From positions 1 to 33,063 of the forward strand of contig MNVF01000038.1 of assembly GCA_001871535.1 (NCBI GenBank): a stretch of 33,063 bases of DNA. Direction: 5' to 3'. The position numbers were made by a program, and so were the translations under genes. Below, piece by piece: positions 1 through 23,106 of the stretch. A model generated the notes under the pieces. It was not told the origin of the DNA. It saw nothing but the letters and a program-made list of their open reading frames with translations, and did not search any database. Position 1 is the first letter of the stretch. Each line of letters begins with the position of its first letter. The DNA is from Candidatus Micrarchaeota archaeon CG1_02_49_24. GTDB taxonomy: Archaea; Micrarchaeota; Micrarchaeia; Anstonellales; UBA8471.

Positions 1-2
1 TT

Positions 3-83
3 GAGCGACCAGCACCCGTAGCGTTTCCGAATGGTGCTGGCGTTGGTTTTGCCCCACGGCACAACCATGCGCAAAACTCGCTC
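3..83 (-). repeat. Family-A double-hairpin element, copy 4. It is in inverted orientation, lies 3' of the aconitase-X small-subunit gene, and its outer stem may continue past the left edge of the window.
   Basis: Read on the minus strand the layout is gagcg-a-[gttttgc N18 gcaaaac]-caacg-[ccagcac N18 gtgctgg]-t-cgctc. Plus-strand coordinates are stems 9-15/34-40 and 46-52/71-77, loops 16-33 and 53-70 (18 nt each), linker 41-45. Confidence 0.75.
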
Positions 84-107
84 CAAAAGGTCATGGAATA
101 CATTCAA

Positions 108-503
108 TTAAATCTTTACAATTCCCCTTTCCGCATCCACTTCAACCGTTTTCCCGCTTTCAATCTTGTCTATTTCGATTTTGTCAACGCATGGAATTTC
201 CGAAATAATGCAGCCGACTGCAACAATCGTTTCGCACTCCTTGTTAATTATTGCCGCTGGCGCCTTGCCGTTTTTTTTCAGCCTGTAAAGGGTGTAAGAG
301 CCGACGGTTGAGCCTTTCCCATTGGGAAACGCCAATATTTTGCCGGCAACGCTTTTGCCTTCCAATGGATGACCCTTTTCCACAATAATTCCGCTGTCCG
401 GGTCTACGCCGCCATAAAAAGATACAGGGGCTATTGAAACCATGGCCTCGCCCTTTGCTTTGCCGGAACAAATTTTTCTGCCTGTTAGGTTGACCATTTT
501 CAA
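108..503 (-). CDS. Phosphomevalonate dehydratase small subunit (aconitase X swivel domain, DUF126 family)
   Basis: The 131-aa ORF has DUF126-like motifs (VSFYGGVDP..G, ILAFPNGKGSTVGSY, APAAII). Its start abuts the stop of the upstream DUF521 gene at 504/503. It lies in an operon with UbiD and UbiX. Confidence 0.85.
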   Translation of the reverse strand: MKMVNLTGRKICSGKAKGEAMVSIAPVSFYGGVDPDSGIIVEKGHPLEGKSVAGKILAFPNGKGSTVGSYTLYRLKKNGKAPAAIINKECETIVAVGCIISEIPCVDKIEIDKIESGKTVEVDAERGIVKI

Positions 504-1676
504 TCACTCCAAAGCAACTTCAACCAATTTTTTCAATGGCAATATTTTTGTCTTGAACCCATTCATCATTTTCGCGTAATAACAGCCTTTTGCCGAATCT
601 GTCGCCAGGCATTTGAAGCGCCCTTTCAACGGCGAAACCGCCATGCAGGTGTCGCAGGCGAATTTTGCCCCTGCGTCTTCGATTGTTTTGGCAACCCCCA
701 TGCTGTCGGCAATCTTTTTTGTCGGTCTTGCCGTGCAAATCCAGAATTCCTTTCTGACTTTTTTCCCCTGCAATAGTTTTGCAACCTGTTCTATTTCGCT
801 GAGGGATGCGTGCGGGCAGCCGATTGAGACAAAATCCACATCTCCTGGGTCCGTCAAGGCAACGATTGCCTCATCAATTTCCTTCTTTGAAACTGAAACC
901 TTTTCTTTTGGCGCACGCGTCTTATAGGGAGTGATGCCTTCGATGTGGTATAATGCCGTTCCGCCGTAAGTTGCAATTGAAGCGCTGAAAGATTTCAGTT
1001 CTTCAATGGAGGCGCTTTTTATTCCTTTGATTAACGGGATTTTGTTCCCTATCATGTTCCCGATGACATGGCCCAATGCCCCGAAATCCGGAACATCATT
1101 TATTGCGCAATCGACTTCGACCACAACCTGCGCTTGCCTGTTTTCGTCAAGATGCAGGCCAAATTCCGGGGTTTTCCCGGTAAGGGCTGACGCCAATGCC
1201 GACGGCCCGCCTTCCCTGTTTGTTTTTGCCCCGATTACCGAATTGGCAAAAGCAACCGCGGAACTTTCGCTCCAGGCAATATGCTGCCCGAAGACCGGGA
1301 GATTTCCAACGAGGTAGGGGGTACAGGTGCATGTAGCAATAACCCCCATTCTCTTGAAAGCGCCGATTACCAGGTCCTGCTGCTTTGCAAAATCTTCTGA
1401 AAACCCAAGAGTGCGCCAGTTTTCCAGGTCCATTCCCGCGGGATTGAGGGTGGTCAAAACCCTTGCCCTCCCATCGCGGGCCATCTCTGCCAGGAACTCC
1501 AGGCCGGCTTCCCCCAGATTTTTATAGGACACCCCTGCAATCTGGACGCTTGAAACGTCAATAAGGCGCTTTGCTCCGAAAATTTCTCCCAATGCCACCA
1601 GGATTTCCATGGATTTTTTGACAGCATTTCCCTGTGCGCCGGAAAGCATCTGCTTTTCTGAAAAAGCCAGTTTCAT
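504..1676 (-). CDS. Phosphomevalonate dehydratase large subunit (aconitase X catalytic domain, DUF521 family)
   Basis: The 390-aa ORF has DUF521-like motifs (VQIAGVSY, TLNPAGMD, CTCTPY, WSESSAVAFANSV). It is adjacent to the DUF126 partner and to a UbiD-family gene. Confidence 0.85.
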   Translation of the reverse strand: MKLAFSEKQMLSGAQGNAVKKSMEILVALGEIFGAKRLIDVSSVQIAGVSYKNLGEAGLEFLAEMARDGRARVLTTLNPAGMDLENWRTLGFSEDFAKQQDLVIGAFKRMGVIATCTCTPYLVGNLPVFGQHIAWSESSAVAFANSVIGAKTNREGGPSALASALTGKTPEFGLHLDENRQAQVVVEVDCAINDVPDFGALGHVIGNMIGNKIPLIKGIKSASIEELKSFSASIATYGGTALYHIEGITPYKTRAPKEKVSVSKKEIDEAIVALTDPGDVDFVSIGCPHASLSEIEQVAKLLQGKKVRKEFWICTARPTKKIADSMGVAKTIEDAGAKFACDTCMAVSPLKGRFKCLATDSAKGCYYAKMMNGFKTKILPLKKLVEVALE

Positions 1677-1683
1677 AAAATCA

Positions 1684-3249
1684 CTACAAAAACCTTGTCA
1701 AATCAACCTTCGGGAAAACCGCTTTCCCGAAGTTCTTGCCATTCGCCTTCAACGGGGCAGTGCAGTCAAACCCGCATTTTGCGGTGAAGCACGTTCCGGG
1801 CTCGGCGCTCGGGTCCAGGCTTGAGCCTTTTTCCCTGGGTTTCATCACAAGGCCAGCGTCTGCCTGGAAGCGCGTTGCCATTGCCCACTCGATATCAAGG
1901 GGGTTGTAGATGTCAATGTCCTTGTCAACTATGAAGACGTGCTTGCAGCTTTTATGGCCTTCGAATGCCGCGGCAACCGCCTTTTTCCCGTCGTCTTCCT
2001 GCCGCTTGTCAATTTTGACTATCGCGTGCAGCCAGGAGCAGCCGCCTGGATTGATGTTCACGTCGAGGCATTTGACACCGGCTTCCTCAACCTTTTTGAA
2101 AATCGTGGGCTCGCGCGGCATGCCCATAATGACCTTGTGCTCAAGCTTGCCGGGCAGCAATGCCTGCCATATCGCATCTTTTCTATGGGTTATTCTTTTT
2201 ATCGTGAGCACCGGCTCCTGCCTTGTTATGTCTGTCGTCTCGGTAAGGTCAACAAACGGCCCTTCTGGGGCTTTTTCGTCAAGCCTGACAGTGCCCTCAA
2301 GTACAAACTCGCAGTCTGCCGGAATCGTGGCGTCAAACGTTTTCGCCCTTACAACCTTCAGCGACTCGAGCGAGTTTGCTATCTCCAGTTCGTTCAGGCC
2401 GAAGTCTACTGAGGTTGCGGCAGCAATAAGCACGTTTGGCGCATTGCCGACGCAGACCGCAACATTGAGCTCCTCGTTCTTTTTCAGCAGCTGGTCAAAG
2501 TGCCTGTCTCTTACGACCCGTATTGAAAATTTGTTCTTCCCTATCTGCATTGCCCTATGGAAATCCACGTTCTGTATGCCATCCTTGTCCCTTGTTATGA
2601 AGACCCCGGAACTTATGTAATTGCCGCCGTCTCCTTCGCAGTGGAAGAGTATGGGCAACTTGTCCAGGTCTATTTCCCCAAACTCCACTTCCTGGCAGGG
2701 CGCGCTTTTCACTTCCTCTGGCTTTGTGGGGTGCTCTATTGCCCGGGTTATCTTGGGGATAAGGCCGCCAGCATGAATACTCCGAGGGCTGAAGCCCTCG
2801 GTTTCTGCTGGGTAAACCTGTTCTGGTAATGTCTGTTGGGCTTCAGGCGAGAACCCAGCAGAAACCGCATAGGTGGGTGCGCTTTTTCCCAGCACTAAAC
2901 TGCTGGGTTTCGAGATATTTCTGAGCGAGTGCTGCGCTTGGGGTTGCCGTATGGCAGCACCAACGCCCGGGCCCAAACACCTATCTGTGCTGGCTCGGGT
3001 CGCTCCGGAATATCTCGGCGCACCCTCTGAGTATTCATCAATGCCGAAATAGGCGGCAACCTGCCCCTTGGTGGCAAAGATGTTTCCTGCAACCCTGAAG
3101 CCCGACCCCGTTATTTTTTCAAAAAGCACAGGCCTTTCGCCAGACCCGTTCAGTATGGCCGAAGCCTCCAATTTTCTTGAAACTGACTTTTTCACCGTTG
3201 TAAGCCGGCCCTGCGCGTCCAGCTTTTCAAGATAGCTGCGAAAACTCAT
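1684..3249 (-). CDS. UbiD-family decarboxylase, probably anhydromevalonate phosphate decarboxylase. It carries a ~91-codon in-frame insertion.
   Basis: The UbiD fold is recognisable over the whole ORF (PVLFEKI..GNIF, SAPCQEV, GNYISSGVFIT, PEGPFVDLTE, GGCSWLHAIV). ATG at 3249 overlaps the ubiX stop as ATGA, whereas the track start at 3258 is GTG. Residues ~75-165 are foreign to the family. Confidence 0.85.
   Translation of the reverse strand: MSFRSYLEKLDAQGRLTTVKKSVSRKLEASAILNGSGERPVLFEKITGSGFRVAGNIFATKGQVAAYFGIDEYSEGAPRYSGATRASTDRCLGPGVGAAIRQPQAQHSLRNISKPSSLVLGKSAPTYAVSAGFSPEAQQTLPEQVYPAETEGFSPRSIHAGGLIPKITRAIEHPTKPEEVKSAPCQEVEFGEIDLDKLPILFHCEGDGGNYISSGVFITRDKDGIQNVDFHRAMQIGKNKFSIRVVRDRHFDQLLKKNEELNVAVCVGNAPNVLIAAATSVDFGLNELEIANSLESLKVVRAKTFDATIPADCEFVLEGTVRLDEKAPEGPFVDLTETTDITRQEPVLTIKRITHRKDAIWQALLPGKLEHKVIMGMPREPTIFKKVEEAGVKCLDVNINPGGCSWLHAIVKIDKRQEDDGKKAVAAAFEGHKSCKHVFIVDKDIDIYNPLDIEWAMATRFQADAGLVMKPREKGSSLDPSAEPGTCFTAKCGFDCTAPLKANGKNFGKAVFPKVDLTRFL
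2764..3036 (+). repeat. Composite hairpin insertion inside the UbiD ORF (antisense to the gene). It contains family-A copy 3.
   Basis: Nested and adjacent inverted repeats account for most of it (a handful of short linker runs are left over). These are ccgagggc-tgaa-gccctcgg (2782-2801), ttctgctgggt/acccagcagaa (2803-2813/2853-2863), gggtgcgc/gcgcaccc (2875-2882/3018-3025), cccagca-ctaaac-tgctggg (2888-2907) and the core at 2911-3017. Confidence 0.8.
2911..3017 (+). repeat. Family-A double-hairpin element, copy 3
   Basis: The layout is cgagatatttctgagcg-a-[gtgctgc N18 gcagcac]-caacg-[cccgggcc N18 ggctcggg]-t-cgctccggaatatctcg. The loops are 2936-2953 and 2974-2991, both 18 nt. Confidence 0.85.
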
Positions 3250-3800
3250 TTGCCCCACCGCCTGAACTTTTCATTTTTAATTCCAAACAAATCCATTATC
3301 TTTCCGGTAATAAACGATTCCAAATCCTTTATAGTTTTGGGTTTATAATAGAACGCCGGAGACAGGGGGAAAACAATTACGCCATAAACCGAAAGGTCGT
3401 ACATGTTCCTCAGGGTAGGTGGGCTTAAAGGCGTTTCCCTGACGCACACCACAAGCCTTTTCCCAGTCTTCAGCATGTTGTCCGCGGCCCTTGAAATCAA
3501 AGTCGAGCAATCCGCCCTCGCAATCTCTGAAATGGTTTTAATTGAAGCCGGAATTACAATCATTCCATCCACCAGAAAGGAAGAGCTTGCAATGGGCGCA
3601 GTCATATCATGATTTGAAAAAACATGTGAAGCCAATTTTTTAATACTCGCAACCGTGCAACTGGTTTCTTCCACAACCAATTTTTCCGCCCAGTCGCTTA
3701 CCACCAGGAAGGTTTCAACCTTTGCCTCTTTCAGGGCATTCAGCAGGTCAATGGCGTAATTCACGCCAGATGCGCCGCAGATGCCGACTATAAGCCTCAA
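3246..3800 (-). CDS. ubiX: Flavin prenyltransferase UbiX (makes prenyl-FMN for the UbiD-family enzyme)
   Basis: The 184-aa ORF has an N-terminal MRLIVGICGASG flavoprotein motif and overall UbiX/Pad1 likeness. It is the first gene of the minus-strand operon. Confidence 0.9.
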   Translation of the reverse strand: MRLIVGICGASGVNYAIDLLNALKEAKVETFLVVSDWAEKLVVEETSCTVASIKKLASHVFSNHDMTAPIASSSFLVDGMIVIPASIKTISEIARADCSTLISRAADNMLKTGKRLVVCVRETPLSPPTLRNMYDLSVYGVIVFPLSPAFYYKPKTIKDLESFITGKIMDLFGIKNEKFRRWGK

Positions 3801-3889
3801 TAACTCACCCTAGAACATCAGATTTTACGAATTGAATGTAAATTATTGAAGTGCTGCCATTTAAAATCGGGGGTTTTGCCAATATAATT

Positions 3890-5113
3890 ATGGAAACTAC
3901 TAGTTCAGGGCAGCTATTCCAGCGCCTCAGGAAACAGGGCTATCACCTAGTGGGAAAACATTCTGCTGTGAAAGCCTGCAAATGGGCAGGCTGCGCACTT
4001 AGGAGAGAGGGCAAGTGCTACAAACACGCTTTTTACGGAATTGAGAGCCATCGCTGCGTCCAGTGCACGCCTGCATTGCAATTCTGCACCCTTTCATGCA
4101 GGTTTTGCTGGAGGATGATGCCCGAAATTTCAAAGCGAGTGCCGTATGAACCTGCACTTATTTGCGGCACCGACGCCCAAGCCCCTATGAAACCGCCCGA
4201 TGGCTTGGGTCGCTTGGAGATTTCGCCAGAGGAGAAATGGCAGAAATTGCCAACGGATTTTGAATGGGATGACGCAGGCACGATTATTGACGGACTGCTT
4301 ATGGGGCAGAAGAAACTTGTTTCCGGCTTTGGCGCATTTGCGGATAAAAAAATGTTCGGCGAAGCATTGGCTCCCAGGCATGCAGCCATAAGCCTTACCG
4401 GCGAGCCTACGATATACCCGCACCTTGGAGAATTGATTTGTGAATTCCATAAAAGGGAGATGACCACCTTCCTCGTGACAAATGGCACGCTACCTCAACA
4501 AATCCGAAAACTGGAAGCTGAAAAGCGCCTGCCCACCCAATTATATGTTTCAATGGTAGCCCCTGATGAGAAGACATACCTTCAGACCGCGCAAACCGAG
4601 GACAAACGGCTATGGAAAAACTATCTGGAAACATTGGAAATTTTGAAGGGAATTGGAAAATGTCACAGGACTGCGCTCAGGATGACGCTGGTGAAAAGAT
4701 TGAATGCAGGAACCCGAAACACACAACCCGAAACCCTGACATGTTGGAGCGAGCGCTCCGAGACGGCACTTATGGCAGGAGCGCCGACGCCCGAGCCACA
4801 GGACAATTCCATGAAGGCTCGGGTCGCTCCGACATGTCACCGAAACTGCATTGACGGTTATGCCAAGCAGATTGAGCTTGCCAAACCATGGTATGTGGAA
4901 GTGAAAAGCTTCGTTTATGTCGGAGGGGCAAGGAAGGAGGAGCGGGGCCTGTGCTTAAACGACATGCTCATGATGGAGGAGGTAAGGGAATTTGCAAAAC
5001 TGCTCGCTGAAAAAACAGGCTACATTATCGCGGCCGAGCATGCGCCCAGCAGGGTGGTGCTCCTGTGCAGGAATGAAAACGCAGCAGAAGGCAGGATAAT
5101 AAAACATGCCTGA
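3890..5113 (+). CDS. taw1: tRNA 4-demethylwyosine synthase Tyw1/Taw1 (radical SAM). It carries two in-frame insertions.
   Basis: Motifs seen are HSAVKACKW, the radical-SAM CTLSCRFCWR, SLTGEPT, FLVTNGT, LYVS and VEVKSFVYVGGAR. ATG at 3890 fits the family N-terminus, whereas the track start at 3851 is GTG. Confidence 0.85.
   Translation: METTSSGQLFQRLRKQGYHLVGKHSAVKACKWAGCALRREGKCYKHAFYGIESHRCVQCTPALQFCTLSCRFCWRMMPEISKRVPYEPALICGTDAQAPMKPPDGLGRLEISPEEKWQKLPTDFEWDDAGTIIDGLLMGQKKLVSGFGAFADKKMFGEALAPRHAAISLTGEPTIYPHLGELICEFHKREMTTFLVTNGTLPQQIRKLEAEKRLPTQLYVSMVAPDEKTYLQTAQTEDKRLWKNYLETLEILKGIGKCHRTALRMTLVKRLNAGTRNTQPETLTCWSERSETALMAGAPTPEPQDNSMKARVAPTCHRNCIDGYAKQIELAKPWYVEVKSFVYVGGARKEERGLCLNDMLMMEEVREFAKLLAEKTGYIIAAEHAPSRVVLLCRNENAAEGRIIKHA
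4124..4224 (+). repeat. Family-A double-hairpin element, copy 1 (inside Tyw1, sense orientation)
   Basis: The layout is gaaatttcaaagcg-a-[gtgccgt N18 gcggcac]-cgacg-[cccaagcc N18 ggcttggg]-t-cgcttggagatttc. The loops are 4146-4163 and 4184-4201. Confidence 0.85.
4703..4852 (+). repeat. 150-nt insertion inside Tyw1 containing family-A copy 2 (core 4738-4838)
   Basis: The outer clamp is aatgcag/ctgcatt (4703-4709/4846-4852). The core is gacatgttggagcg-a-[gcgctcc N18 ggagcgc]-cgacg-[cccgagcc N18 ggctcggg]-t-cgctccgacatgtc. The 5' arm carries aacccgaaac twice. Confidence 0.85.
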
Positions 5114-5135
5114 GAAAAAGTTGCAGGTGGGTTTT

Positions 5136-5756
5136 ATGAAACAAGTGCGAACGAGGAAATCTGAAAAAGTAAACAAAACAATTAAGGCGCTCATCATAGA
5201 TTTGGACGGCACTCTCGTGGATTCAACCGATTCGGTCATTCAGATGTACAATACGGTGTTCGCTGATTTCGGGCTGGAACAGCCCCATGAAAATAAGGTG
5301 CGGGCGCTCTTTGGCAGGACAACGCGCGAGTTCATAAACACCCTTGCGCCAGAGCTGCCGGATGACAGGAAAAAGGCCATGTTCAATGCCCTGAGAACGG
5401 CTACCATCGAGGTCGTGCCCTTGATAAAGAAGGGCGAGCTCTGCGGACATATCCCAAAGTTTGCTGAAAAATACAAGCTTGCAGTGGTAACCAACAGGGG
5501 AGAGAATTCCACCAACATCATACTTGAGAAGTTCGATATCCGCAAATATTTTGATTTGGTGGTCAGCGCAGTGCTCCACGAGCCAAAGCCCAGCCCGGAC
5601 ATGCTCTTTTATGTGCTGAAGCAGTTCGGAATATCCCCGGAGGAAGCGGTTTTCCTGGGCGACAGGGACGTGGATGCGATGGCAGGCGCACGGGCTGGTG
5701 TGAGAACACTATTGGTGCCTTTGGGAAAAAAGGCAATGGATGAATTGCTCGGCTAA
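5136..5756 (+). CDS. HAD-superfamily phosphatase (phosphoglycolate phosphatase-like)
   Basis: Motifs seen are IIDLDGTLVDS, VVTNR, KPSPD and GDRDVD. The start is either ATG 5136 or ATG 5106, the latter overlapping the Tyw1 stop. Confidence 0.8.
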   Translation: MKQVRTRKSEKVNKTIKALIIDLDGTLVDSTDSVIQMYNTVFADFGLEQPHENKVRALFGRTTREFINTLAPELPDDRKKAMFNALRTATIEVVPLIKKGELCGHIPKFAEKYKLAVVTNRGENSTNIILEKFDIRKYFDLVVSAVLHEPKPSPDMLFYVLKQFGISPEEAVFLGDRDVDAMAGARAGVRTLLVPLGKKAMDELLG

Positions 5757-6136
5757 CTAGGCCTTATTTTCCTTCTTGAGGTGGTTTTCCTTTGGACACG
5801 CATGACCATCCAATGGCCTGTGCGATTTGGCCCGCGCTTTGGAGGGATACGGATTATTTTTGGATAAAAAACCGTGACTGTCTGCGCAGGAGATTGAGCC
5901 TTAACCTTCATTACAGAAGACCTAACCGGCTTAGGGTCAATAGCGCCATTGCCGCCAGAATGAGTGGCAGGGTTCCCTTTTTTCCCGTTAGGCACTGACG
6001 CCCAGGGTGGCAAAGTGCCTGGGGATGCCGCAGGAACAACTTGAAGCGCACCTGCACGTGAAAAAACTCCTAACGGCGCAACTAGGCCTCGCAACTCCTC
6101 AAGCAAGACTAACCTTCTCTCAAACGGCATATCCAC
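5753..6136 (-). CDS. Hypothetical small basic, Pro/Gly-rich protein (doubtful)
   Basis: This is the only long ORF in a 500-bp gap and lies divergent from endA. It has no recognisable motif and a low-complexity composition. Confidence 0.3.
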   Translation of the reverse strand: MDMPFERRLVLLEELRGLVAPLGVFSRAGALQVVPAASPGTLPPWASVPNGKKGNPATHSGGNGAIDPKPVRSSVMKVKAQSPAQTVTVFYPKIIRIPPKRGPNRTGHWMVMRVQRKTTSRRKIRPS

Positions 6137-6256
6137 ACCCCGGTATTAGACATCCAATTCCAAATTGATTTTGTTATAGATATATTAAATACCGCTATTT
6201 AAAGCTTCTGGCGCAGGCAAATGCTTTTTTAAGTTTCGGAACTCAAATTTTGATGC

Positions 6257-7432
6257 ATGATTATTTTAGACCTAGACGTAAAGAGGCATGAAGCCAGGGT
6301 CAGCGACGCCTCCAGCGTTGGCCAGCTGGTCAATGGCTGCTATGGCGAAATGGTGAAAGGCACCATCCACCTGACCCCGGAGGAAGCGCTCTATCTCATG
6401 GACATACGCAATGCCAGGGCATTTGACGAAAAACTCAACGAATATTCGTTCAACCAGGTGGCAGGCCTCTTCAAGGTGCCTAAGCTTATCCCCCGCTACC
6501 TGACCTATAAGGATTGGAGGGACAGGGGCCTCATTGCCCGCAATTTCAGGGATTTGGCAAGGCTCAACGAGCGCTTCAACAAGGACGTGGTGGCAAACTA
6601 CCCGCACTCTGAATTCCAGCCAAAGCAGTTCTCAGTTGACGGCATGTTCTTCAAGGACAGCCTCATGAGCGTAATCGATGAGGAAAATGCAGGCCGGGAG
6701 CTTTACAACACATATTGGATAGGCCAGTACGGCACCTACAAGGCAGATGCCCGCGGCAAGCTCCTGAAGCTGGATGTATACGAAACCCTTTTCCTGCTCA
6801 GGCATTTCAATTTCAAGCTGGTGAATTCAGATGAAAAAGAGGTCCTGGCAACTGCCAGGGGCCACAACAAGGACTTCCCAAGCCTTTATGATGTGTATGA
6901 GGACTGGCGGCTCAGGAACTTCATACTCAAGACAGGGTTCAAATTCGGCACCCATTTCCGGGTCTATTTCCCTGGCGCCAGCCCGGCAAAAAGCGGCACA
7001 GACTGGATGCATTCCAAGCACGTGATACACGTGTTTCCAAGGAAGAGCAAGCTGCTCATATCCGAATGGGCGCGGGCAATCAGGGTGGCCCATTCAGTGA
7101 GAAAGACGTTCATACTTGCCATCCCAGGGGAAAAGGCAAAGGGCGAAAAGGAAGTCAGTGAGCTGGATTTCCTGCTCTATCACAGGAGAAAGGAGGGCAT
7201 TGAGACGCCGCGGGAGGGCAAGCCGAAATACCTAATGTTTTCGCTCTCTGAGGAAGAGTTCATAGGCGGTGCTGAGCTTGCCAATGCGATTGAATTCTGC
7301 AAGAAAGCCGGCCTTGGCCTGATGCTTGCCATTGCGGATAGGGAGACCAGCGTCACCTACTACCTTGTGAGAAGGATTGACCTGAAGGGAAGCAAATACG
7401 GATATTATGAAATTGGATGGTACCAGCCGTAA
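6257..7432 (+). CDS. endA: tRNA-splicing endonuclease, single-chain multi-unit form (resembles the three-unit epsilon-type described for ARMAN archaea)
   Basis: The central catalytic unit is GFKFGTHFRVY...HSKHVIHVF...AHSVRKTFILAI (Tyr/His/Lys). An N-terminal unit has LTPEEALYLM and YKDWRDRGLIAR. An extra C-terminal structural unit ends in LMLAIADRETSVTYYLVRR. At 391 aa it is roughly twice a homotetramer-type subunit. Confidence 0.85.
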   Translation: MIILDLDVKRHEARVSDASSVGQLVNGCYGEMVKGTIHLTPEEALYLMDIRNARAFDEKLNEYSFNQVAGLFKVPKLIPRYLTYKDWRDRGLIARNFRDLARLNERFNKDVVANYPHSEFQPKQFSVDGMFFKDSLMSVIDEENAGRELYNTYWIGQYGTYKADARGKLLKLDVYETLFLLRHFNFKLVNSDEKEVLATARGHNKDFPSLYDVYEDWRLRNFILKTGFKFGTHFRVYFPGASPAKSGTDWMHSKHVIHVFPRKSKLLISEWARAIRVAHSVRKTFILAIPGEKAKGEKEVSELDFLLYHRRKEGIETPREGKPKYLMFSLSEEEFIGGAELANAIEFCKKAGLGLMLAIADRETSVTYYLVRRIDLKGSKYGYYEIGWYQP

Positions 7433-7869: not shown

Positions 7870-9072
7870 ATGAATCCATCAGGACTCAGGACTCTGGACC
7901 CAAGACCCGCTGGACCCAAGACCCTGGACCCTAGACTCGACGGCAAGCATATCTGCATCTGCATCACAGGCAGCGTCGCCTCTGTCAGGGCATTCGACTT
8001 GGCAAGGCTGTTGATTAAATTTGGCGCCAAAGTTACCTGCGTTGCATCATCTGAAGCATTGCGCTTTGTGGCAAAGGAGAGCCTTGAATGGGCAACCGGC
8101 AACCCGGTGATTGACAAAATCACCTATAAGTGCGAGCACCTTGAGCTGGCAAAGTGCGATGCAGTTGTAATTGCGCCTGCAAGCGCAAATACAATTTCAA
8201 AAATCGCCCTGGGCATCGCCGACACGCCGGTTACCCTTGTGGCACAGAGCGCGCTGACACAAACACCCGCCATAATTGCGCCTGCCATGCACAGGCTGCT
8301 GATGAACCCCATAATCAAGGAGAACCTGAAAAAACTGGAAAAACTGGAAAAGGTCACGGTGATTCCTTCGGTGAAAGCCGATGGAAAGGAGAAATTGGCT
8401 GATGTGGAGGAGATTGCGGATTATGCAATAAGGGCAGTTGCGACAAAGCGCCTGGAAGGAAAGAGGATTTTGATAGTGGGAGGTGCCTTCAGGGAATACA
8501 TTGATGACGTGAGGTTCATTTCAAACGGAAGCTCTGGCAGGTTTTCGGTTGCGCTTGCGAAAGAATGTTTTTACCAGGGGGCGGATGTGACATTGGTGCA
8601 TGGAAAAACTGAGGTTGCCGCGCCAAAATATGTTGAAACGATGGGGATTGAAACAACAACGGAATTGATTGGAAAGATTGAAGAATTTGCGAAAGGAAAA
8701 TGCATCATACTCTTCCCGGCAGCCCTTAATGATTTTTCAATTGTGAAAAAAAAGGACGGCAAATTTGACAGCACAAAAAGGCAACCCATTGAGCTGGCGC
8801 CATTGCCGAAGGCAATCAAAATCGCAAGAGAAGCGAACAGAACGGCGAAAATAATCGGGTTTAAGGCTGAGGTTAGTAGCAGTGTTAATGCAGAAAAAAT
8901 AAAACGATTGCTGGAAAATTGTGATTCTCTTGTTTGGAATGATATTGGGAAGCATGGGTTTGGCAGTGATGAGACTGAGATAATTATATTTGCCAAAAGC
9001 GGAAAGGAAATTGGAAAATTTGCCGGGATGAAAGATGAACTGGCAGAGAGAATAATCGATTTGGTTCAGTGA
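7870..9072 (+). CDS. coaBC: Bifunctional phosphopantothenoylcysteine decarboxylase / phosphopantothenate-cysteine ligase (CoaBC/Dfp)
   Basis: The flavoprotein domain shows ICITGSVASV and APASANTISKIALGIADT. The DFP domain shows ILIVGGAFREYIDDVRFISNGSSG. The only ATG upstream of the core is 7870, so the first ~24 codons are encoded by the word array. Confidence 0.85.
   Translation: MNPSGLRTLDPRPAGPKTLDPRLDGKHICICITGSVASVRAFDLARLLIKFGAKVTCVASSEALRFVAKESLEWATGNPVIDKITYKCEHLELAKCDAVVIAPASANTISKIALGIADTPVTLVAQSALTQTPAIIAPAMHRLLMNPIIKENLKKLEKLEKVTVIPSVKADGKEKLADVEEIADYAIRAVATKRLEGKRILIVGGAFREYIDDVRFISNGSSGRFSVALAKECFYQGADVTLVHGKTEVAAPKYVETMGIETTTELIGKIEEFAKGKCIILFPAALNDFSIVKKKDGKFDSTKRQPIELAPLPKAIKIAREANRTAKIIGFKAEVSSSVNAEKIKRLLENCDSLVWNDIGKHGFGSDETEIIIFAKSGKEIGKFAGMKDELAERIIDLVQ
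7879..7940. repeat. Heptamer word array (caggact caggact ctggacc caagacc ... ctggacc ctagact) overlapping the coaBC 5' end
   Basis: It has a visible 7-nt period and shares ggactctggaccc (7889-7901) with the array at 7433-7494. Confidence 0.7.
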
Positions 9073-10854: not shown

Positions 10855-11110
10855 GAAAATCCCTCTAACAGTTGCGGGTTCCGGGTTGCGAGTTTCGGGC
10901 ACTGAATACGTAACTCGGAACTCATCGACCCGAAGGGGAGAGCTATTCGCCGGCAGGCGATCAACAGCTATTGCTGTTGAGAATTTCTCCAACTGGAGAA
11001 ATGCCAGCAGACGAATTCAAAAACCCGAAACCCGAAACTCTTATCAGCTGCCAATTGGATTTCGCTTGATAGCGAAAAGCTCGCAACATAGAAGATGTCG
11101 ACCACCTTGC
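10855..11110. repeat. Tetraloop mini-hairpin array (family B) in the intergenic leader
   Basis: Hairpins seen are tcaacagc-tatt-gctgttga (10961-10980), atttctcc-aact-ggagaaat (10983-11002) and tttcgct-tgat-agcgaaa (~11061-11078). The words acccgaaac and gagtttcggg occur in inverted copies. Confidence 0.7.
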
Positions 11111-16450: not shown

Positions 16451-16614
16451 TTCCTCTCCCCGTAAGTCTTCATGTTGATGAAACTGAAGAGAGCTTCGCT
16501 GCTCACGCATGCATGCTCTCATTCTGTTTGAATGCACCTGCGGATGCATAGCTCGGCGACTGTTGTCACCGATTCCCCAAGCCCCTTCACTTCCTCTCCC
16601 CGTAAGTCTTCATG
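16451..16614. repeat. 24-nt perfect direct repeat (16451-16474 and 16591-16614) flanking a 116-nt hairpin-rich insertion at the 3' end of the Cdc48-like gene
   Basis: ttcctctccccgtaagtcttcatg occurs twice, 140 nt apart. Both copies encode ...MKTYGERK followed by a stop (TGA at 16587, TAG at 16447). Confidence 0.8.
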
Positions 16615-19600
16615 AATGCATAATAAGCCTGCAACATCTCTAAGGAAATGGATGGCCGCCTGCCCTTTATCACTGCAAATATCTCTGCCATTGAGAGATG
16701 CGGTTCAATGCCCCTCAGCTTTTTCTTCACCATCTCAAGCTTGACCCCCTGGCAGATTGAGGTGATGTCTGCCGCCGAGAAGCCCTCAGTCAGCCTGCTG
16801 AGCTCATCATAATCAATGACTGCCCCTGCCGCCACACCCTCAAGGTTTCTCTGGAAGATGTTGGCCCGTGCTTTCAGGTCAGGCGGTGGGATGAACACTA
16901 TCTTGTCAAACCTGCCGGGCCTCATGAGCGCAGGGTCGAGAATCTCCGGCTTGTTGGTGGCGCCTATGAGAAGCACGTTCTTGAGCTCCCGGACCCCGTC
17001 AAGCTCGGAGAGCAGCTGGCCGACAAGGCCGCCATCTGAGAGCTCACGGGAGGGCGCCACAGTCTCAATCTCGTCTATGAATATGATGGCAGGCGCCTGC
17101 TCCTTGGCGCGGTTGAATGTTTCTTTCAGCACCCGGATGCTGTTGGCATAGCCCTTTTTGAGCAGCTCGGCACCTGAGAGAAACTGGAAGGTGGCCTTCA
17201 ACTCATTGGCGGCAGCCTTGACTATGAATGTTTTGCCGCACCCTGGAGGTCCGAATAGGAGCATGCCCTTGTAGGGCTTGACCTTGTACTGCTCCATCAA
17301 GTCCTCGTGGAGAAGCGGCAGCTCGATGGCATCCAGGAGAATGGTCTTCACCTCATCCAGGCCGACCACGTCTGCCCATCTCACAGCATCCTCTTTTTTC
17401 TTTTCCACCTGGCGGCCGACTCTCCTTTCGAAATCAAGCCGGAACTGCTCGTATTCCTCGAGCTGCTCCAGGCCGACGCTGGGCCTGACGTTGTCCAGCA
17501 CCCGCAGGAGGTGCTCCATGGTGATGGGCAGGATTTTGTTCTGCTTTGACGCGTCGGCGGCTGCAAACCGCGCGGCTTCCCTGCACACATTGGCTATATC
17601 AGCGCCCGAGAACCTGTCGGTTTTCTTTGCCAGGAGGCCAAGGTCGATATTTGCCGTTGGAAGCTTGCTCAGCTGCACCTTGAAAATGTCCTTTCTTCCT
17701 TCGGGGTCAGGCAGCTTCATATAGATGATTTTGTCGAACCTGCCGGGCCTGAGAAGGGCGGCATCAAGCATATTGGGGACGTTGGTGGTGCCTATGACCA
17801 TCACGGGCTTGGTTGCGCCCTTGTAGCCGTCAAGCTCTGTGAGAAAAACGGACATTACCCTGGGCGCCACGTCGTCTGCGCTGTAAAGCTCGCGCTTTTT
17901 CCCAATGGAATCAATCTCGTCAAAGAAAAGGATGGAGGGCGCGTTTTCCCTGGCGACCTTGAAAATTTCCGCGACATTTTTCTCGCTGTTGTGGGCAAAG
18001 ATGCCGCCGAACCCGCCAGCGAAATTCTGGCAGGGCTCAACTGAGATATCGTAAACGAATTCCTCATCGGCAACCTGCCTTATTTCCTCAACCCTGTCCC
18101 AATAGATGTCGCCATTGACCACTTTTTCAAGGCTGGTGGATGATGCACCAAGCTTTGTATGTTTCATCAGAAGAATTTGCCTGCCTATGGTTGCCGAGCC
18201 TGCCTCAGAATATTTCTTAAGGTTCCGGAAGACCCATTCCTTCAGCTCGCCGGAGAGCGGTATCTGCACATCGCGGTGCCAGGAACCGGCCTCAAGCGCG
18301 CATTCATACCGCTTGTTCCGCATATCATCCAGAAATCCTATCTGCCCAAAACCCCGGAAGGGTTCGCCGGTCAGGAAAATGCGATACATAAGGGCGCCGC
18401 TCCATTCCATTTTTTCACGCACAGTGGCAACGATGCCGAAATACAATAATAGATATAGAAGCTGGCTGGCAAGGGTTTTGCTGGCAGTGCAGGCCTCGAC
18501 AGTGCCAATTCCTTTCTGATTTTCATAAACCGTGCCATCGCCAGAGAAATAGCCCCTGAGAAAGGCGGCAAGCCTCAGCCTGTCAAGCGAGAACACGGCA
18601 ACTGGCGCCTTCTTCCTCTCAGCACCATGCTCAAGCCCAAGGAAATGCCTCATGAAAACATAAAGCACCCTACCTGGGATATATATGTCGCGGCCCCTGC
18701 CGACGCCACGAAAGTTTTCAGTTTTGGAGTTTCCAGTCTGGGAGTTTTGACTCTCTTCCCTTTCTTCTCCCGAGGGTCTTCTTTCTGGGAAAGAAGAGGC
18801 TCTTTTCTTTTCATAGATGATTATTTTGCCGAAAAGCTTTGCGCATAGTTCGGCAATCTTTCCGAGCTGGCAGTCAGAGGTGCTTACCCTGACCGTGTCT
18901 TCCCGAGTGTAGCTGCCCTCTGCAACCCACAGGCCGAGAAAGAGCGCCAGCTCTCCATCAAGCTTGATTATGCCCGGCAGGCCTTTGCAGGCGCCCTTTC
19001 CTGTGCAGACCAGGATTTTACTGCTGTCATATGAAATGCCGGTGCGCTCCATGAGTGCAATGAACCTGCCGGCCGGCAGTGAAATTTCCTTTTCCCTTGA
19101 CAGAATGTATTTCAAGTATTTGGTATTTTTTAGGCCGAGAAGGATATGTGTTTCGTTTGCGCCGATTTTTTCAACAGCAAGTTTTACGTAATCTCTGACT
19201 CGAGTTACCCTAAGGCCATAATCCGCATGTTTCAGGCTGCCGAGAAAATCAAGCTGCCCAACAGGTGCACTGGGAAACTCGACTCTGGAGGGGATTGCGA
19301 TGTATGAAAAACCCGCCTTGAGTTTTGAGGTTTCAATGCTCTTCACTGAGCTGCCGTCTATAGTGAATAGGGAATGATAACCGGTAACGCGAATTCTGCG
19401 GCCGCTCCTCGTGCGCACTTCGTAAATGGGGGATGTGCATTTGTGTTTTATGTGGCCGGCGATTTCGGCAAACACGGCTTTCCCTTTTTCGTCGAAGCTC
19501 AGAACTTTGGCATCCCTCCTTTGCTCAACAATTTCTCCAATCTTTGCAAGCTTTACCGCACCGTTTTCCATTATCATGATTTCCTCATCGTATGGCAGGC

Positions 19601-20912
19601 TTTCGCCGTACCATTGAGATAAAAGCTCTGAAGTTTTCACATTGTAGAAGCCATAGCTCATCTCCTTTGAGAGAGCGCGCATCAGCATGGTTTTGCCTGT
19701 TCCGGGCGGGCCGAAAAGAAGCACGCCGCTGGGCGGCTTTATGCCGTAGGTGAAGCTCAATTCCTTGTGAAGGAGCGGTGTGATGATTGCCTCGCGCAAC
19801 TCTGCCTTCACGTCATTGTAGTTGCCCACATCATCAAGGGATTTTTCAGCCGTTGACTCTGCCATGTCCTGGACGCCGAACTTGCCGAACTTCTTTGTCT
19901 TCCGCCTGCGCTCAATCAGGCGCTCCCTGCTAAGGTCAACACCGCAGAAGTCAAGCAGGGCCACAATGGCAATCGAGATTACTATATATATAACAGAAAC
20001 CGCAGAGAACATGAACGGCACGCCAAATGCGCTCAGCAAAAGATTGGCCGCAGGCACTCCTAAGAGGGAGAGCGCACCCACGGTCTGCTTCCAATTGCTC
20101 TTTATATTGCCAGGCAGCCAGCCTGCAAGGAACAGGATTGCCCCCCAAAGAAAAATGTGGAGAAGGCCTGAGTCGGCAATGAACAGCTTAAGCATATTGT
20201 CAGCAATTTTCCCCAGCGATGGGGTAATCTGCTTCAATATTATGTCATAGGAGAAAATTGAAACCACAGATGCGGCTGCCTTGGATGGGAGTTCCAGCAG
20301 GCCCACCTCTTCCCTGATGTCATGCTGGAGCGCATCAATCTTCGGGGTGAACTGGCCCAGGTTTGTGATAGGCATGAAGGCGCTGTTCTGCACTATCCAG
20401 AGCGAGGACAGGAGAAGGATTAAACAGACAGCCGGGATGGAAATCACAATACTCCGCTGGGAGCCGGTGCGGAAAGCCCCGAGCACCATGAGCAACGGCA
20501 CAAACCCGGAAAGCAGCGAAAATGGCAATGGCGCAAACGGCGCGCACACGATTATTTCAAGGAATGCAATGACATCCCAGTCTTCATGCATCTGGAATAG
20601 GACAAGGGAGATAATTAGCATAAACGGCCATACGAATAGCGGCGCCTGATAGGAGAGGGCAGGAATTGCGAATATTATGCCCATGATTATGCCAACCTGG
20701 GGAAACCTGTAGGCAGCCAGGCCGCAGGCGAGCGCAAGCAAAAATGAGATGTAAATAGGATAGAACTGGAAAAGCACGAGAAGATAGAGCGCGCCCAGGA
20801 AAATCAGCACAGCATTGCCGAGCTCCTTGTTCTCCTGAAGGGATTGTAGCGTTGCCCTGACCTTCTGCTCGGACATGGTTGCGGATTTCAGTTGTTGTGT
20901 TGAAGCGCTCAC
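16587..20912 (-). CDS. Membrane-anchored double-AAA+ ATPase (Cdc48/VCP-like D1+D2) interrupted by an intein
   Basis: About 330 N-terminal residues form multiple TM helices. D1 has Walker A GPPGTGKT and Walker B ILFFDEIDS. D2 has GPPGCGKT and IIFIDEIET. SRH-like and arginine-finger regions follow each domain. Confidence 0.85.
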   Translation of the reverse strand: MSASTQQLKSATMSEQKVRATLQSLQENKELGNAVLIFLGALYLLVLFQFYPIYISFLLALACGLAAYRFPQVGIIMGIIFAIPALSYQAPLFVWPFMLIISLVLFQMHEDWDVIAFLEIIVCAPFAPLPFSLLSGFVPLLMVLGAFRTGSQRSIVISIPAVCLILLLSSLWIVQNSAFMPITNLGQFTPKIDALQHDIREEVGLLELPSKAAASVVSIFSYDIILKQITPSLGKIADNMLKLFIADSGLLHIFLWGAILFLAGWLPGNIKSNWKQTVGALSLLGVPAANLLLSAFGVPFMFSAVSVIYIVISIAIVALLDFCGVDLSRERLIERRRKTKKFGKFGVQDMAESTAEKSLDDVGNYNDVKAELREAIITPLLHKELSFTYGIKPPSGVLLFGPPGTGKTMLMRALSKEMSYGFYNVKTSELLSQWYGESLPYDEEIMIMENGAVKLAKIGEIVEQRRDAKVLSFDEKGKAVFAEIAGHIKHKCTSPIYEVRTRSGRRIRVTGYHSLFTIDGSSVKSIETSKLKAGFSYIAIPSRVEFPSAPVGQLDFLGSLKHADYGLRVTRVRDYVKLAVEKIGANETHILLGLKNTKYLKYILSREKEISLPAGRFIALMERTGISYDSSKILVCTGKGACKGLPGIIKLDGELALFLGLWVAEGSYTREDTVRVSTSDCQLGKIAELCAKLFGKIIIYEKKRASSFPERRPSGEEREESQNSQTGNSKTENFRGVGRGRDIYIPGRVLYVFMRHFLGLEHGAERKKAPVAVFSLDRLRLAAFLRGYFSGDGTVYENQKGIGTVEACTASKTLASQLLYLLLYFGIVATVREKMEWSGALMYRIFLTGEPFRGFGQIGFLDDMRNKRYECALEAGSWHRDVQIPLSGELKEWVFRNLKKYSEAGSATIGRQILLMKHTKLGASSTSLEKVVNGDIYWDRVEEIRQVADEEFVYDISVEPCQNFAGGFGGIFAHNSEKNVAEIFKVARENAPSILFFDEIDSIGKKRELYSADDVAPRVMSVFLTELDGYKGATKPVMVIGTTNVPNMLDAALLRPGRFDKIIYMKLPDPEGRKDIFKVQLSKLPTANIDLGLLAKKTDRFSGADIANVCREAARFAAADASKQNKILPITMEHLLRVLDNVRPSVGLEQLEEYEQFRLDFERRVGRQVEKKKEDAVRWADVVGLDEVKTILLDAIELPLLHEDLMEQYKVKPYKGMLLFGPPGCGKTFIVKAAANELKATFQFLSGAELLKKGYANSIRVLKETFNRAKEQAPAIIFIDEIETVAPSRELSDGGLVGQLLSELDGVRELKNVLLIGATNKPEILDPALMRPGRFDKIVFIPPPDLKARANIFQRNLEGVAAGAVIDYDELSRLTEGFSAADITSICQGVKLEMVKKKLRGIEPHLSMAEIFAVIKGRRPSISLEMLQAYYAFMKTYGERK
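17988..19601 (-). mobile_element. 538-aa intein with a LAGLIDADG homing-endonuclease domain, inserted in AAA+ D1 between Walker A and Walker B
   Basis: The host junction is WYGE|S...FAHN|SEKNV, which restores the canonical GESEKNV. Block B is RVTGYHSLF. The two LAGLIDADG motifs are LALFLGLWVAEGS and LAAFLRGYFSGDGT. The C-terminal block is VYDISVEP..NFAGG..IFAHN followed by Ser+1. Confidence 0.85.
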
Positions 20913-20959: not shown

Positions 20960-21290
20960 GGACTAGATTCACAGGTATCAGATTTTACGAAGAGCCCATC
21001 GAGCAGACTTTGTCTGTTTGAGCTATCGCGCAACAGCACGATTCAATCGGCGGCAGCAGTCGGCGAGATTTTCACCCGCAGGTGAAAAGCCAGCAGGCAA
21101 TCGGCGGCAGCAGTCGCCGAGCTATGCACCATCTGGTGCATTCAACTGTCAGCAAGGCTGACAGTACACAGATTGAGCCTGTTTGAATCGACCTGTTGGT
21201 TGATCAGATTTTCCGAAGAGCCTCTCTCGCTGATGCGAGAGACCCTGCACAATGTGCAGGGTATGAAGGCTCATTCGGAAAATCTGATAA
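20960..21290. repeat. Hairpin-dense divergent intergenic region (families B and C)
   Basis: Hairpins seen are cagac-ttt-gtctg (21004-21016), ttttcacc-cgca-ggtgaaaa (21069-21088), tgcacc-atct-ggtgca (21125-21140), ctgtcag-caagg-ctgacag (21146-21164) and tcgacc-tgtt-ggttga (21188-21203). The direct repeat caatcggcggcagcagtcg recurs 55 nt apart. Confidence 0.75.
21203..21281 (+). repeat. 79-nt perfect repeat, copy A (family-C three-way-junction element)
   Basis: It is identical to 32919-32997. The fold is cagattttccgaagagcc-[tctctcgc tgat gcgagaga]-[ccctgcac aatg tgcaggg]-tatgaa-ggctcattcggaaaatctg. The closing stem extends to 21287 in this copy. Confidence 0.9.
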
Positions 21291-21467: not shown

Positions 21468-22613
21468 ATGGCAATCCTTATCATAGTTTTCTCAGCCGGA
21501 TTCATAGCCCTCCTCTACCTCATGAAAAAAACCAGCGCGAAAAAGACGAAATATCTCACCAGCGTAGACACCCAGAGGCTGCCGGGCGAAGGCGCCCATG
21601 TGGGCCGAATCGCAGAGCAGAGCTTGAGTGCCTACCTGCCCTTTGACAAGCTCACCATGCATTCCCTGGTGGCAGGCGCCACTGGTTCAGGCAAGACCGT
21701 TGCTGCCCAGGTAGTTGCCGAGGAGGCGCTCCTGAACAAGGTGAGCATACTCGTGTTTGACCCAACGGCGCAATGGACAGGCTTCCTCAGGAAGCAGGCT
21801 ATAAGCGATATGCTGAAACGGTATGCGCGGTTTGGCCTGCAAAAGAGCGATGCGCGTGCATTCGACGGCAACATCTACCTAGTGGAAAATTCCGAAACGT
21901 TCCAGATAAACGTGAAAAAATACATGATGCCCGGAGAGATAAACGTATTCGTGCTGAACAGGCTGAAGCCCCAGGAGATGGAAATCATTGTTACCCGCGT
22001 GATTAAGGCGGTATTCGAGGCGAACCTGGAGGAATACAGGGGGCTGCGGCTGCTCATTGTGTTTGACGAGGTGCACAGGCTGCTTCCGAAGTTCGGGGGG
22101 ACTGGTGAAGGGTTTAAGCAGATAGAACGCGCGGTCCGCGAGTTCAGGAAATGGGGCGTTGGGATGGTGCTTGTCTCCCAGGTGCTGAGCGATTTTGTTG
22201 GTGAAATCAAGGCGAACATTGGCACTGAGATGCAGTTCCGGACGAAATACGAGCAGGATTTGGAGCGCATACGCTACAAATTCGGCCCGGAATCATTGCT
22301 GGGAGTGGTGAAGGCAAATGTCGGCACCGGGCTGATGCACAATTCGGAATACAACAACGGCAATCCCTATTTCGTGGAATTCCGGCCGCTCTTGCACAAT
22401 GTGGTGCGATTGAGCGACAAGGAGCTTGACACTTATAAAAGGTATAATGACAGGATTGTGGCGTTGGAGCAGAGAATTGAGAAAATGAAGGAAGATGGGA
22501 ATGATGTATTTGATTTGAACCTTGAGCTGAACCTGGCAAAAGATAAAATGAAAAAGGGCGCGTTCAACATTGTGGATATTTACCTTGAGAGCCTGGAAGG
22601 GAAGACGGCTTGA
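21468..22613 (+). CDS. Membrane-anchored P-loop NTPase of the HerA/FtsK/VirB4-like (DUF87-type) kind
   Basis: It has an N-terminal TM (MAILIIVFSAGFIALLYL), Walker A (VAGATGSGKT) and Walker B (LLIVFDEVHRL). The start was moved from TTG 21339 to ATG 21468. Confidence 0.65.
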   Translation: MAILIIVFSAGFIALLYLMKKTSAKKTKYLTSVDTQRLPGEGAHVGRIAEQSLSAYLPFDKLTMHSLVAGATGSGKTVAAQVVAEEALLNKVSILVFDPTAQWTGFLRKQAISDMLKRYARFGLQKSDARAFDGNIYLVENSETFQINVKKYMMPGEINVFVLNRLKPQEMEIIVTRVIKAVFEANLEEYRGLRLLIVFDEVHRLLPKFGGTGEGFKQIERAVREFRKWGVGMVLVSQVLSDFVGEIKANIGTEMQFRTKYEQDLERIRYKFGPESLLGVVKANVGTGLMHNSEYNNGNPYFVEFRPLLHNVVRLSDKELDTYKRYNDRIVALEQRIEKMKEDGNDVFDLNLELNLAKDKMKKGAFNIVDIYLESLEGKTA

Positions 22614-22812
22614 AAAGGACCTGCTCTTCCAGGCTGACGATAATGTTCTACTCTTGGTCCATAATGTTCTGGGAAGGCACACGCCACTCTTTCTCTAGTG
22701 CGGTTATCCCAGCCGCCTGCGACATTAGAAACAAATTGGGCAAGATATGTTCCCACAACTTCTTTAGGATCAGGGCGTGTAGTAACTTCCTGTAGTGCAA
22801 CTTTAGCATGAT

Positions 22813-23100: not shown

Positions 23101-23106
23101 TTTTTA

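Follow-up and report, generated by a model that had tools for sequence, protein, structure and literature searches.

E, a family of T-shaped palindromic DNA repeats, probably mobile, in groundwater Micrarchaeota

The first 5 kb of a 33,063-nt stretch of DNA from the DPANN archaeon Candidatus Micrarchaeota archaeon CG1_02_49_24 (contig MNVF01000038.1, positions 1 to 33,063; hereafter the window) hold four double-hairpin loci, which we confirm as genuine copies of a single ~101-nt T-shaped palindromic repeat family, here termed E. The original prediction, made from the sequence alone, had read the conserved geometry and fixed junction nucleotides of these loci as the product of selection on an (RNA) structure and not as the trace of a MITE, a miniature transposable element with inverted repeats. 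That interpretation is partly supported: E is an undescribed, structure-conserving family, but one that behaves as a mobile palindromic DNA repeat rather than as an RNA family. We consider it likely that E is a non-autonomous mobile DNA element, akin to MITEs, REPINs and the Rickettsia palindromic elements (RPEs), which would be translated as a disordered loop where it lies within a gene. No description of such elements was found in the literature on repeats of DPANN archaea and Micrarchaeota, on archaeal MITEs or on RPEs in archaea, so that E appears to be previously undescribed for DPANN archaea, though it is of a known type of repeat.

Family E within and beyond the window

The junction pattern AGCGA-N(28-38)-CRACG-N(30-40)-TCGCT matches the window four times, at 4-82(-), 2924-3004(+), 4134-4214(+) and 4748-4828(+), against a chance expectation of 0.01 matches per window in dinucleotide shuffles, none of 100 of which gave four. 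RNA folding returned the predicted three-way junction for all four copies (z = -4.3, -7.3, -5.6 and -3.3). Folding of 4124-4224, 4738-4838 and 2911-3017 with DNA parameters retained the outer stem and the second hairpin in all three, and the first hairpin was refolded in the minimum-energy structure of 2911-3017. A covariance model built on six element copies (R1) picked out exactly the four copies over the 33 kb, with the rest at noise level and no further copy in the other 28 kb. Pattern, folds and model together bear out the shared blueprint and its fixed junction as those of a real repeat family, whose copies in the window are:

1-85, minus strand: copy 4, matched by the pattern at 4-82, R1 score 63.7 bits, truncated by the window edge
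2911-3017, plus strand: copy 3, with an 18-nt terminal inverted repeat, R1 score 98.1 bits
4124-4224, plus strand: copy 1, R1 score 93.6 bits, in sense and in frame within TYW1 (element base 1 at codon position 1)
4738-4838, plus strand: copy 2, R1 score 106.1 bits, in sense within TYW1 in another frame (element base 1 at codon position 3)

Across the family, the element is almost always 101 nt long (99-102 nt), or 103 nt with its usual flanking T…A, and consists of a terminal inverted repeat of 14-17 bp around two hairpins of 7-8 bp, an architecture that as a single strand amounts to a T-shaped three-way junction. The consensus begins TGACAYNTYGGAGCGAG…. It is the total length that stays constant: the loops span 17-19 nt, and one subfamily has one base more in the first loop and one fewer in the second. 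The rule that all eight loops are 18 nt long thus stands for the window, with the stems as first drawn, and is replaced by this range in the wider family. Contrary to what had been supposed, the loop sequences are related: the hairpin-1 loops at 4124 and 4738 have GCACTTAT in common and those at 2911 and 3-83 have TGCCGTATGG/TGCCGTGGGG. Similarly, the outer stems (14-18 nt, 94% paired over 29 copies, consensus TGACAYNTYGGAGCGA / TCGCTCCRANRTGTCA), which had been taken for unrelated words, are diverged relatives and all variants of one consensus, GAYAYNTYRRAGCG; their subfamilies GACATGTYGGAGCG, GACACTTCGGAGCG, GACACGTTCGAGCG, GACATTCCGAAGCG and GATATTTCGGAGCG are plainly related. Modules are mosaic between copies, and invariant positions concentrate at the junction, as GAGCGAG, CCRACGCC and GGTCGCTC. 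E has no protein of its own, and the frames in use vary from copy to copy.

The strict pattern, run over the JGI and ENA metagenomes, found 37 loci, 34 of which were confirmed by R1; the model itself gave ~50 best-strand matches on the metagenome loci, representing ~35 distinct full-length sequences at more than 20 loci. The sources are JGI and ENA groundwater samples from different sites together with three NCBI metagenome-assembled genomes (MAGs) of Micrarchaeota, and a partial copy lies at a contig end of a Crystal Geyser Micrarchaeota MAG. Further copies are thus numerous, and the original prediction passes the refutation tests that it had set for itself. A loose pattern run over GTDB genomes produced chance matches only, in GC-rich bacteria (L003-L103, irrelevant to E; L-numbers denote sequences other than the window). 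The E pattern had no match in IMG/VR, nor did the copy-2 region by blastn against a phage collection or by plasmid BLAST, and there is accordingly no link to a known virus or plasmid. Rfam 15 at gathering score gave no match anywhere in the window, and at E<=1 over positions 1-5400 nothing overlapped the elements. A census of host proteins by way of the element-encoded peptide returned two short matches only, one of them the Crystal Geyser MAG (which led to L143), and was uninformative because protein clusters are represented by insert-free relatives.

Probable mobility and maintenance of the palindrome

One comparison is with a sister genome (GCA_964358515.1, L001) of 87-95% nucleotide identity to the window. 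Copy 1 is missing from L001 and L106, where the joined window flanks match across the junction (net difference of 105 nt from L001), and the protein alignment has a gap at copy 1 in P0002. Copy 2 is present in L001 too, at 94% identity, and is identical over 101 of 101 nt to L139:1302-1402, an intergenic site with unrelated flanks; copies that differ from it by 1-4 nt are present at further loci. Such identity of 101-nt copies at different loci points to recent copy-paste. The TYW1 gene of L001 carries a different 48-nt double hairpin elsewhere (L001:2693-2740), a 16-residue in-frame insert that is not in the window.

Copies are also nested: with the flanks of several copies joined, other repeats reappear. 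One E lies inside the 5-nt linker of another at L123:2373 and in L112/L104/L107/L128, or inside a hairpin arm of a further T-shaped repeat, family B, at L110:5209 and L135:2277, and a 45-nt mini double hairpin occupies an E loop at L129:6404 (module L129:6432-6476), where it is flanked by GATT/GATT. Degenerate heptad arrays, (YCGNAAC)n, surround copies of the GACATGT subfamily; the E core of L117 is inverted relative to the same flanks, and chimeric and truncated copies exist. The flanks are mostly T[GAC…GTC]A, with neither a consistent direct repeat nor a fixed target-site duplication: copy 1 fits a duplication of 2-4 nt (GCCC/GCCA), and L110, in which deletion of T+101 nt restores a perfect hairpin, fits none.

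What keeps the palindrome intact was assessed on 29 distinct 101-nt copies. Standard pairs fill 95.0% of cells, compared with 81.6% in shuffles, and sliding the partner by 1-3 columns leaves 30-45% pairing. Both sides are altered in 18 of the 29 pairs (covariation score 0.42 vs 0.175), and the compensatory stem changes first noted in the window are therefore abundant in the family. Among the mismatches, G·T/T·G (18) are as frequent as A·C/C·A (20). Since G·U, but not A·C, would be tolerated in an RNA read from a single strand, the equal frequencies indicate a strand-symmetric constraint that fits a DNA palindrome rather than one RNA strand. Such a palindrome could persist through templating from arm to arm or because folding is selected for on either strand. 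Between close pairs of copies, substitutions per site fall from 0.100 in the loops through 0.076 in the outer stem and 0.040 in the inner stems to 0.027 at the junction. The six differences in 101 nt between copy 2 and its L001 orthologue follow suit: loops account for four and a single outer-stem pair for the other two, whereas the inner stems and junction are unchanged. As TYW1 in its entirety has 87% identity to L001, copy 2 is more conserved than its gene. Two further structural features were considered and rejected. Pairing between the loops (a pseudoknot) is unsupported, as mutual information reveals nothing past relatedness, and an apparently conserved 1x1 mismatch in the outer stem of the window copies turns out, in the 29 copies, to be merely the most variable pair.

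A structured-RNA family, whether acting in cis within mRNAs or as independent small RNAs, with a junction under selection at the RNA level, would account for the strong covariation, invariant junction nucleotides, conserved length and stable predicted folds, and the element does have polarity, since R1 separates its strands (~100 vs ~50 bits). We nevertheless regard this as improbable. Copies occur in both orientations relative to host open reading frames (ORFs) and in several frames, G·U is no commoner than A·C, unlike in functional RNAs, and even the permissive Rfam search was empty. Moreover, identical copies at unrelated loci, nesting, chimeras and absence from the sister genome are the behaviour of a transposon, and, together with the two orientations and the mismatch symmetry, leave the earlier inference of selection on an (RNA) structure unsupported.

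Replication slippage or template switching might also have made the palindromes locally, with arm-to-arm correction to keep them and no transposition at all. Small hairpin modules and variable heptad arrays do abound in the genome, the insert in the UbiD-like gene described below contains hairpins within hairpins, and symmetric Watson-Crick maintenance is what templating between arms would be expected to yield. However, identical or nearly identical 101-nt sequences with conserved junction motifs at different loci cannot arise independently, and the same family occurs in samples from different sites, which makes a purely local origin very unlikely; template switching may still add to the maintenance of the stems and to heptad and hairpin expansions. 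Just as little probability attaches to E being a domesticated DNA element whose junction is the binding site for a host function (a protein-binding, recombination or replication-associated site). The junction nucleotides evolve slowest and copy 2 has diverged less than the gene around it, but the sites are arbitrary (coding loops, leaders, other repeats), in both orientations and with one sister-genome difference, no positional regularity was seen, and the conservation of copy 2 is explicable by concerted evolution or recent re-insertion. Mobility of a DNA palindrome therefore remains our preferred reading.

Copies within genes and neighbouring features

In-gene copies of E are found in either orientation and in no fewer than four frames, and their ORFs are open throughout, as is every host ORF in the window. 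The sense copies 1 and 2 share TYW1 (3851-5113, +) in two different frames, copy 1 being immediately downstream of the radical-SAM CxxxCxxC motif. Antisense copies occur in UbiD, in the MutL linker of L134 between the DNA_mis_repair and MutL_C domains, in L117 and in L133. The L117 copy is in the leader, at the N terminus, of a pilin-like protein, and a membrane-anchored ORF of 634-644 aa holds three to four copies with its frame kept in two diverged orthologues (L133, L137). In the proteins, insertion falls in loops, linkers or leaders. AlphaFold models the TYW1 inserts at aa 78-118 (copy 1) and aa 276-316 (copy 2) with a pLDDT of ~30, in a surrounding fold above 90. The family is short of stop codons, with 3.9 of 6 frames open per copy against 2.68±0.21 in dinucleotide shuffles. 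These indications, indirect but consistent, suggest that in-gene copies are translated as a disordered surface loop of ~34-35 residues, VPYEPALICGTDAQAPMK being one of the predicted insert peptides. A conserved translated peptide module is ruled out, as frames and orientations differ between copies (sense frames 0 and 1, antisense frames).

The features of the window that bear on these copies are listed here, and are taken up in turn below:

2775-3036, minus strand: U-type T-shaped palindromic element with outer arms GAATACTCCGAGGG / CCCTCTGAGTATTC, in frame in the UbiD linker
4709-4737, plus strand: degenerate heptad repeats CCGAAAC ACACAAC CCGAAAC CCT at the left flank of copy 2, with one more heptad at 4840-4846
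6257-7432: gene for a three-unit splicing endonuclease (EndA), 1.4 kb away
21203-21288, plus strand: family B, a T-shaped repeat of 86 nt in which an outer stem of 20 bp is combined with two hairpins of short loop (z = -10.6 folded as RNA, -12.0 as DNA)

The weakest of the alternatives, that E consists of intron-like sequences removed from mRNA, for instance by the broad-specificity endonuclease encoded at 6257-7432, draws on the interruption of conserved enzymes, on the nearby EndA gene and on a length that suits in-frame removal (net insert of 105 nt for copy 1), but is barely credible given an outer stem that is a continuous helix with neither a bulge-helix-bulge nor 3-nt bulges, antisense copies in UbiD, MutL and other ORFs, many intergenic copies, insertion in loops, linkers and N-terminal leaders rather than core elements, and host frames that are open over up to ~315 nt, also in diverged orthologues, which splicing would not demand. 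In view of structure, orientation and open host frames we reject a bulge-helix-bulge intron in particular.

Copy 3 is antisense within the UbiD-like ORF (1684-3258, -), nested in the loop of the older U-type element. By Pfam, a gap of ~105 residues separates UbiD_N (aa 10-77) from the UbiD (Rift) domain (aa 183-) of this protein. The window U element is enlarged by copy 3 and by extra hairpins (2799-2867 and 2889-2907), and an intact U element of 115 nt is found in the UbiD insert of the sister genome (L001:1616-1730, R1 26.3 bits), with no copy 3 inside. In distant Micrarchaeota, whose TYW1 is ~45% identical, palindromic multi-hairpin inserts lie in frame in TYW1 at L141:10339-10431 and L142:~2150-2250; the former (protein P0005) is a T-shaped element of the U type (R1 26.2 bits), 17 residues downstream of the site of window copy 1, and the TYW1 proteins of these lineages have other in-frame inserts near the same sites.

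Copy 4 is intergenic, downstream of the gene for the AcnX small subunit (108-503, -). A second assembly of the same species (GCA_013330115.1, L002) holds it complete, together with a tandem fifth copy just outside the window, at L002:264-455, and has further hairpin repeats at its contig end. The gene to the left of the window (L002:1-260; L133:10007-11941) encodes the 634-644-aa hypothetical protein, which has a C-terminal transmembrane helix and a linker made up of three to four E/U copies read in frame. That the L002 contig ends inside this E/U cluster suggests that the repeats break assembly.

The number and side of the heptads around copy 2 are not the same in L001. Degenerate heptad arrays of this kind, (Y-C-G/A-N-A-A-C)n with variable copy number, also occur at 10871-10898 (-) and 11025-11038 (+) in the window and at L133:1745-1765 and 8830-8850, L123:6546-6566 and L130:7207-7234, often after a TATA-like box and just before or at the 5' end of an ORF, where they translate as PETRN-like peptides. 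Mini double-hairpin modules of ~41-48 nt (two 6-7-bp hairpins with 3-4-nt loops and a short linker) are present at 11059-11090 in the window, at L129:6432-6476 and at L001:2693-2740. Family B has a second copy in the window, at 32919-32997, both copies being upstream of gene starts, and is found at 98-100% identity on about 15 fetched contigs.

Homologues of the TYW1 protein are annotated as Micrarchaeota, and the EndA gene and the archaeal mevalonate-pathway genes of the window agree with that placement. The window also contains a CDC48-type AAA ATPase ORF of 1441 aa (16587-20912, -) with an apparent large intein-like insertion in its first ATPase domain. In the 500 nt between the HAD hydrolase and EndA genes (5757-6256), in which sister assemblies have no gene called, the sole ORF is one of 127 aa with odd composition, and Rfam gave no match at gathering score. 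A 183-aa ORF at 22580-23131 (-) has three near-identical repeats of ~30 residues (…DAAAGIGRTDLLREAIHDDGLPEGIRNHA…).

Proposed mobilisation and comparison with known systems

In the mechanism we envisage, E, which lives in a lineage of groundwater Micrarchaeota, would spread by copy-paste to new sites, with a preference for targets that are themselves palindromes, for instance other repeats (their linkers, loops and arms) and heptad arrays. A copy that landed in a gene would survive only if the reading frame stayed open, and the conserved junction and hairpins could serve, as folded single-stranded DNA, as the substrate of a mobilising enzyme. We tentatively suggest that the most plausible such enzyme would be an HUH/Y1 transposase, IS200/IS605- or RAYT-like, acting in trans. 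Transposases of the Y1/HUH kind work on hairpins of single-stranded DNA and leave no target duplication on insertion, a mode that fits E in its lack of a clear duplication, its preference for the single-stranded portions of other palindromes, and its conserved hairpins and junction. A Pfam scan of 137 ORFs from E-bearing contigs identified two IS200-like Y1_Tnp genes (L126:2116-2556, +; L104:3109-3546, -), as well as two ORFs with TnpB domains (OrfB_IS605, Cas12f1-like_TNB) and a DDE fragment. The Y1 genes are flanked by hairpin ends of their own (e.g., CTACGGGTTTTAACCCGTAG, ATAGGGGCAAAGCCCCTAT) and E lies 0.9-1.7 kb away; a transposase flanked by E (a REPtron) was not found among the E-bearing contigs. 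A TnpB-like gene at L121:9022-10275 (+) and a DDE_3 fragment at L126:1548-1976 (+) were observed on Micrarchaeota contigs of this set.

Several points weigh against the reading of E as a mobile element, or against parts of it. The ends of the IS200-like and TnpB elements are unlike E, and IS200/IS605 elements normally have no terminal inverted repeats. Around 250 kb of sequence contained no autonomous or long element bounded by E ends, and since the contigs were chosen for carrying E, both its density and its co-occurrence with transposases are biased. The target-site signature is inconsistent, with a net 105 nt relative to the copy-less genome but 102 nt without duplication in one nested case. 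Every sampled copy is rather distant in sequence from copy 1, although L001 lacks the latter, so that copy 1 either derives from an unsampled source or has been lost from L001. Conservation of the stems could stem from template switching between arms instead of selection for transposability, and translation of the inserts rests on open frames and insertion sites.

A more speculative proposal, to which we give little weight, is that the T-junction core (GAGCGAG / CCRACGCC / GGTCGCTC) may be the substrate of an undescribed, dedicated machinery, HUH/Y1-type or structure-specific and acting on folded single-stranded DNA. This would mobilise a double-hairpin superfamily (E, U, B and the mini modules) across Micrarchaeota, whose elements would have evolved to be compatible with coding (~34 codons, few stops on both strands) and so to live in essential genes of streamlined genomes. 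As a less likely variant, recognition of this fold would take place in RNA, with the insert removed from the transcript.

Proliferation of repeats is not known as a trait of DPANN archaea, whose genomes are tiny and streamlined. One Micrarchaeota lineage nonetheless carries at least three families of T-shaped palindromic repeats, their in-frame hosts include TYW1, MutL and, from the archaeal mevalonate pathway, the UbiD-type decarboxylase, and a structurally related element lies in the TYW1 of a distant Micrarchaeota lineage. This would constitute an archaeal parallel to the Rickettsia ‘selfish DNA’ in protein-coding genes, and lends support to the notion that invasions of this kind are tolerated by small populations dependent on a host. 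It may also explain the odd length variation and low-complexity inserts of Micrarchaeota proteins, with effects on annotation, alignment and structure prediction, as well as contig breaks in MAGs. The family, whose three-way junction is unusually well conserved, offers a clean natural data set for compensatory evolution in DNA palindromes and a candidate substrate for the study of single-strand transposition in archaea.

Although E is distinct from each of the systems to which we compared it, it displays individual features of several. The archaeal bulge-helix-bulge introns of tRNA, rRNA and Cbf5 pre-mRNA likewise interrupt archaeal genes as short sequences, with an endonuclease of broad specificity encoded nearby; unlike them, E has no bulge-helix-bulge motif (two 3-nt bulges and a 4-bp helix), is found in antisense as well as sense orientation and keeps the host ORF open. 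The inverted terminal repeats of parvoviruses such as adeno-associated virus (AAV) are also T-shaped; those of AAV form the ends of the linear genome of the virus, as its telomeres, and an HUH endonuclease processes them. They share with E a long palindrome around two small ones, a three-way junction in single-stranded DNA and the flip/flop of the inner part, comparable to the inverted core in L117. However, they are viral telomeres whereas E is an interspersed chromosomal repeat whose pattern is absent from IMG/VR.

MITEs are closer. Those derived from IS200/IS605 include the palindrome-associated transposable elements of Haloquadratum. As in MITEs, which are short, non-coding and multi-copy, with terminal inverted repeats or subterminal hairpins, stable stem-loops and nesting, and which occur in archaea, E has small size, inverted ends, copy number with interspersion, and presence/absence polymorphism; no cognate parent insertion sequence with the same ends was found in the ~250 kb of sequence. 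Elements of the IS200/IS605 type insert without target duplication, and E differs from them in its long terminal inverted repeats. Classical prokaryotic MITEs of the terminal-inverted-repeat type comprise Correia, ERIC and the Sulfolobus SM elements (PMC10969869), and E departs from this type in having no consistent target-site duplication. Typical MITEs are AT-rich and intergenic, whereas E is GC-rich and frequently in frame in genes. For archaea, a 2024 review lists MITEs in Sulfolobus, Halobacterium, Haloquadratum, Desulfurococcus and a few others only (PMC10969869).

REP/REPIN sequences and the GTAG/CGTC-tagged palindromes (PMC3733652) are built of hairpin units with a short conserved tag by the stem, often in inverted pairs, with subsets that differ in stem sequence and with some intragenic copies. 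Mobilisation as single-stranded DNA by Y1 (IS200-like) transposases has been proposed for REP/REPIN, and the CGTC families, like E, have no dedicated transposase. In contrast, REPs are hairpins of 20-40 nt with 4-5-nt loops and are mostly extragenic, whereas the T-shaped unit of E measures 101 nt, its loops 17-19 nt and its outer stem 14 bp. E carries no terminal GTAG/CGTC tag, its tags being the three junction motifs, and its linker reads CGTCG or CGTTG on the reverse strand only.

The closest analogue is provided by the RPEs, ahead of the REP/REPIN and tagged palindromes and of the MITEs of either type. RPEs (Ogata et al. 2000) are in-frame insertions in the housekeeping genes of a reduced genome and are described as encoding one conserved peptide (PMC10969869), whereas the peptides of E vary. 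E further differs in its two orientations and at least four frames, and in being archaeal and GC-rich with a conserved three-way junction and two large-loop hairpins; there is no sequence similarity between the two. Both are nevertheless palindromic repeats of ~100-150 bp in several families, which adjoin no dedicated transposase and occupy, in frame, folding-compatible sites in unrelated housekeeping genes of an organism with a reduced genome. For E these permissive sites are found in TYW1 (twice), UbiD, the MutL linker, the pilin-like leader and the 640-aa membrane protein.

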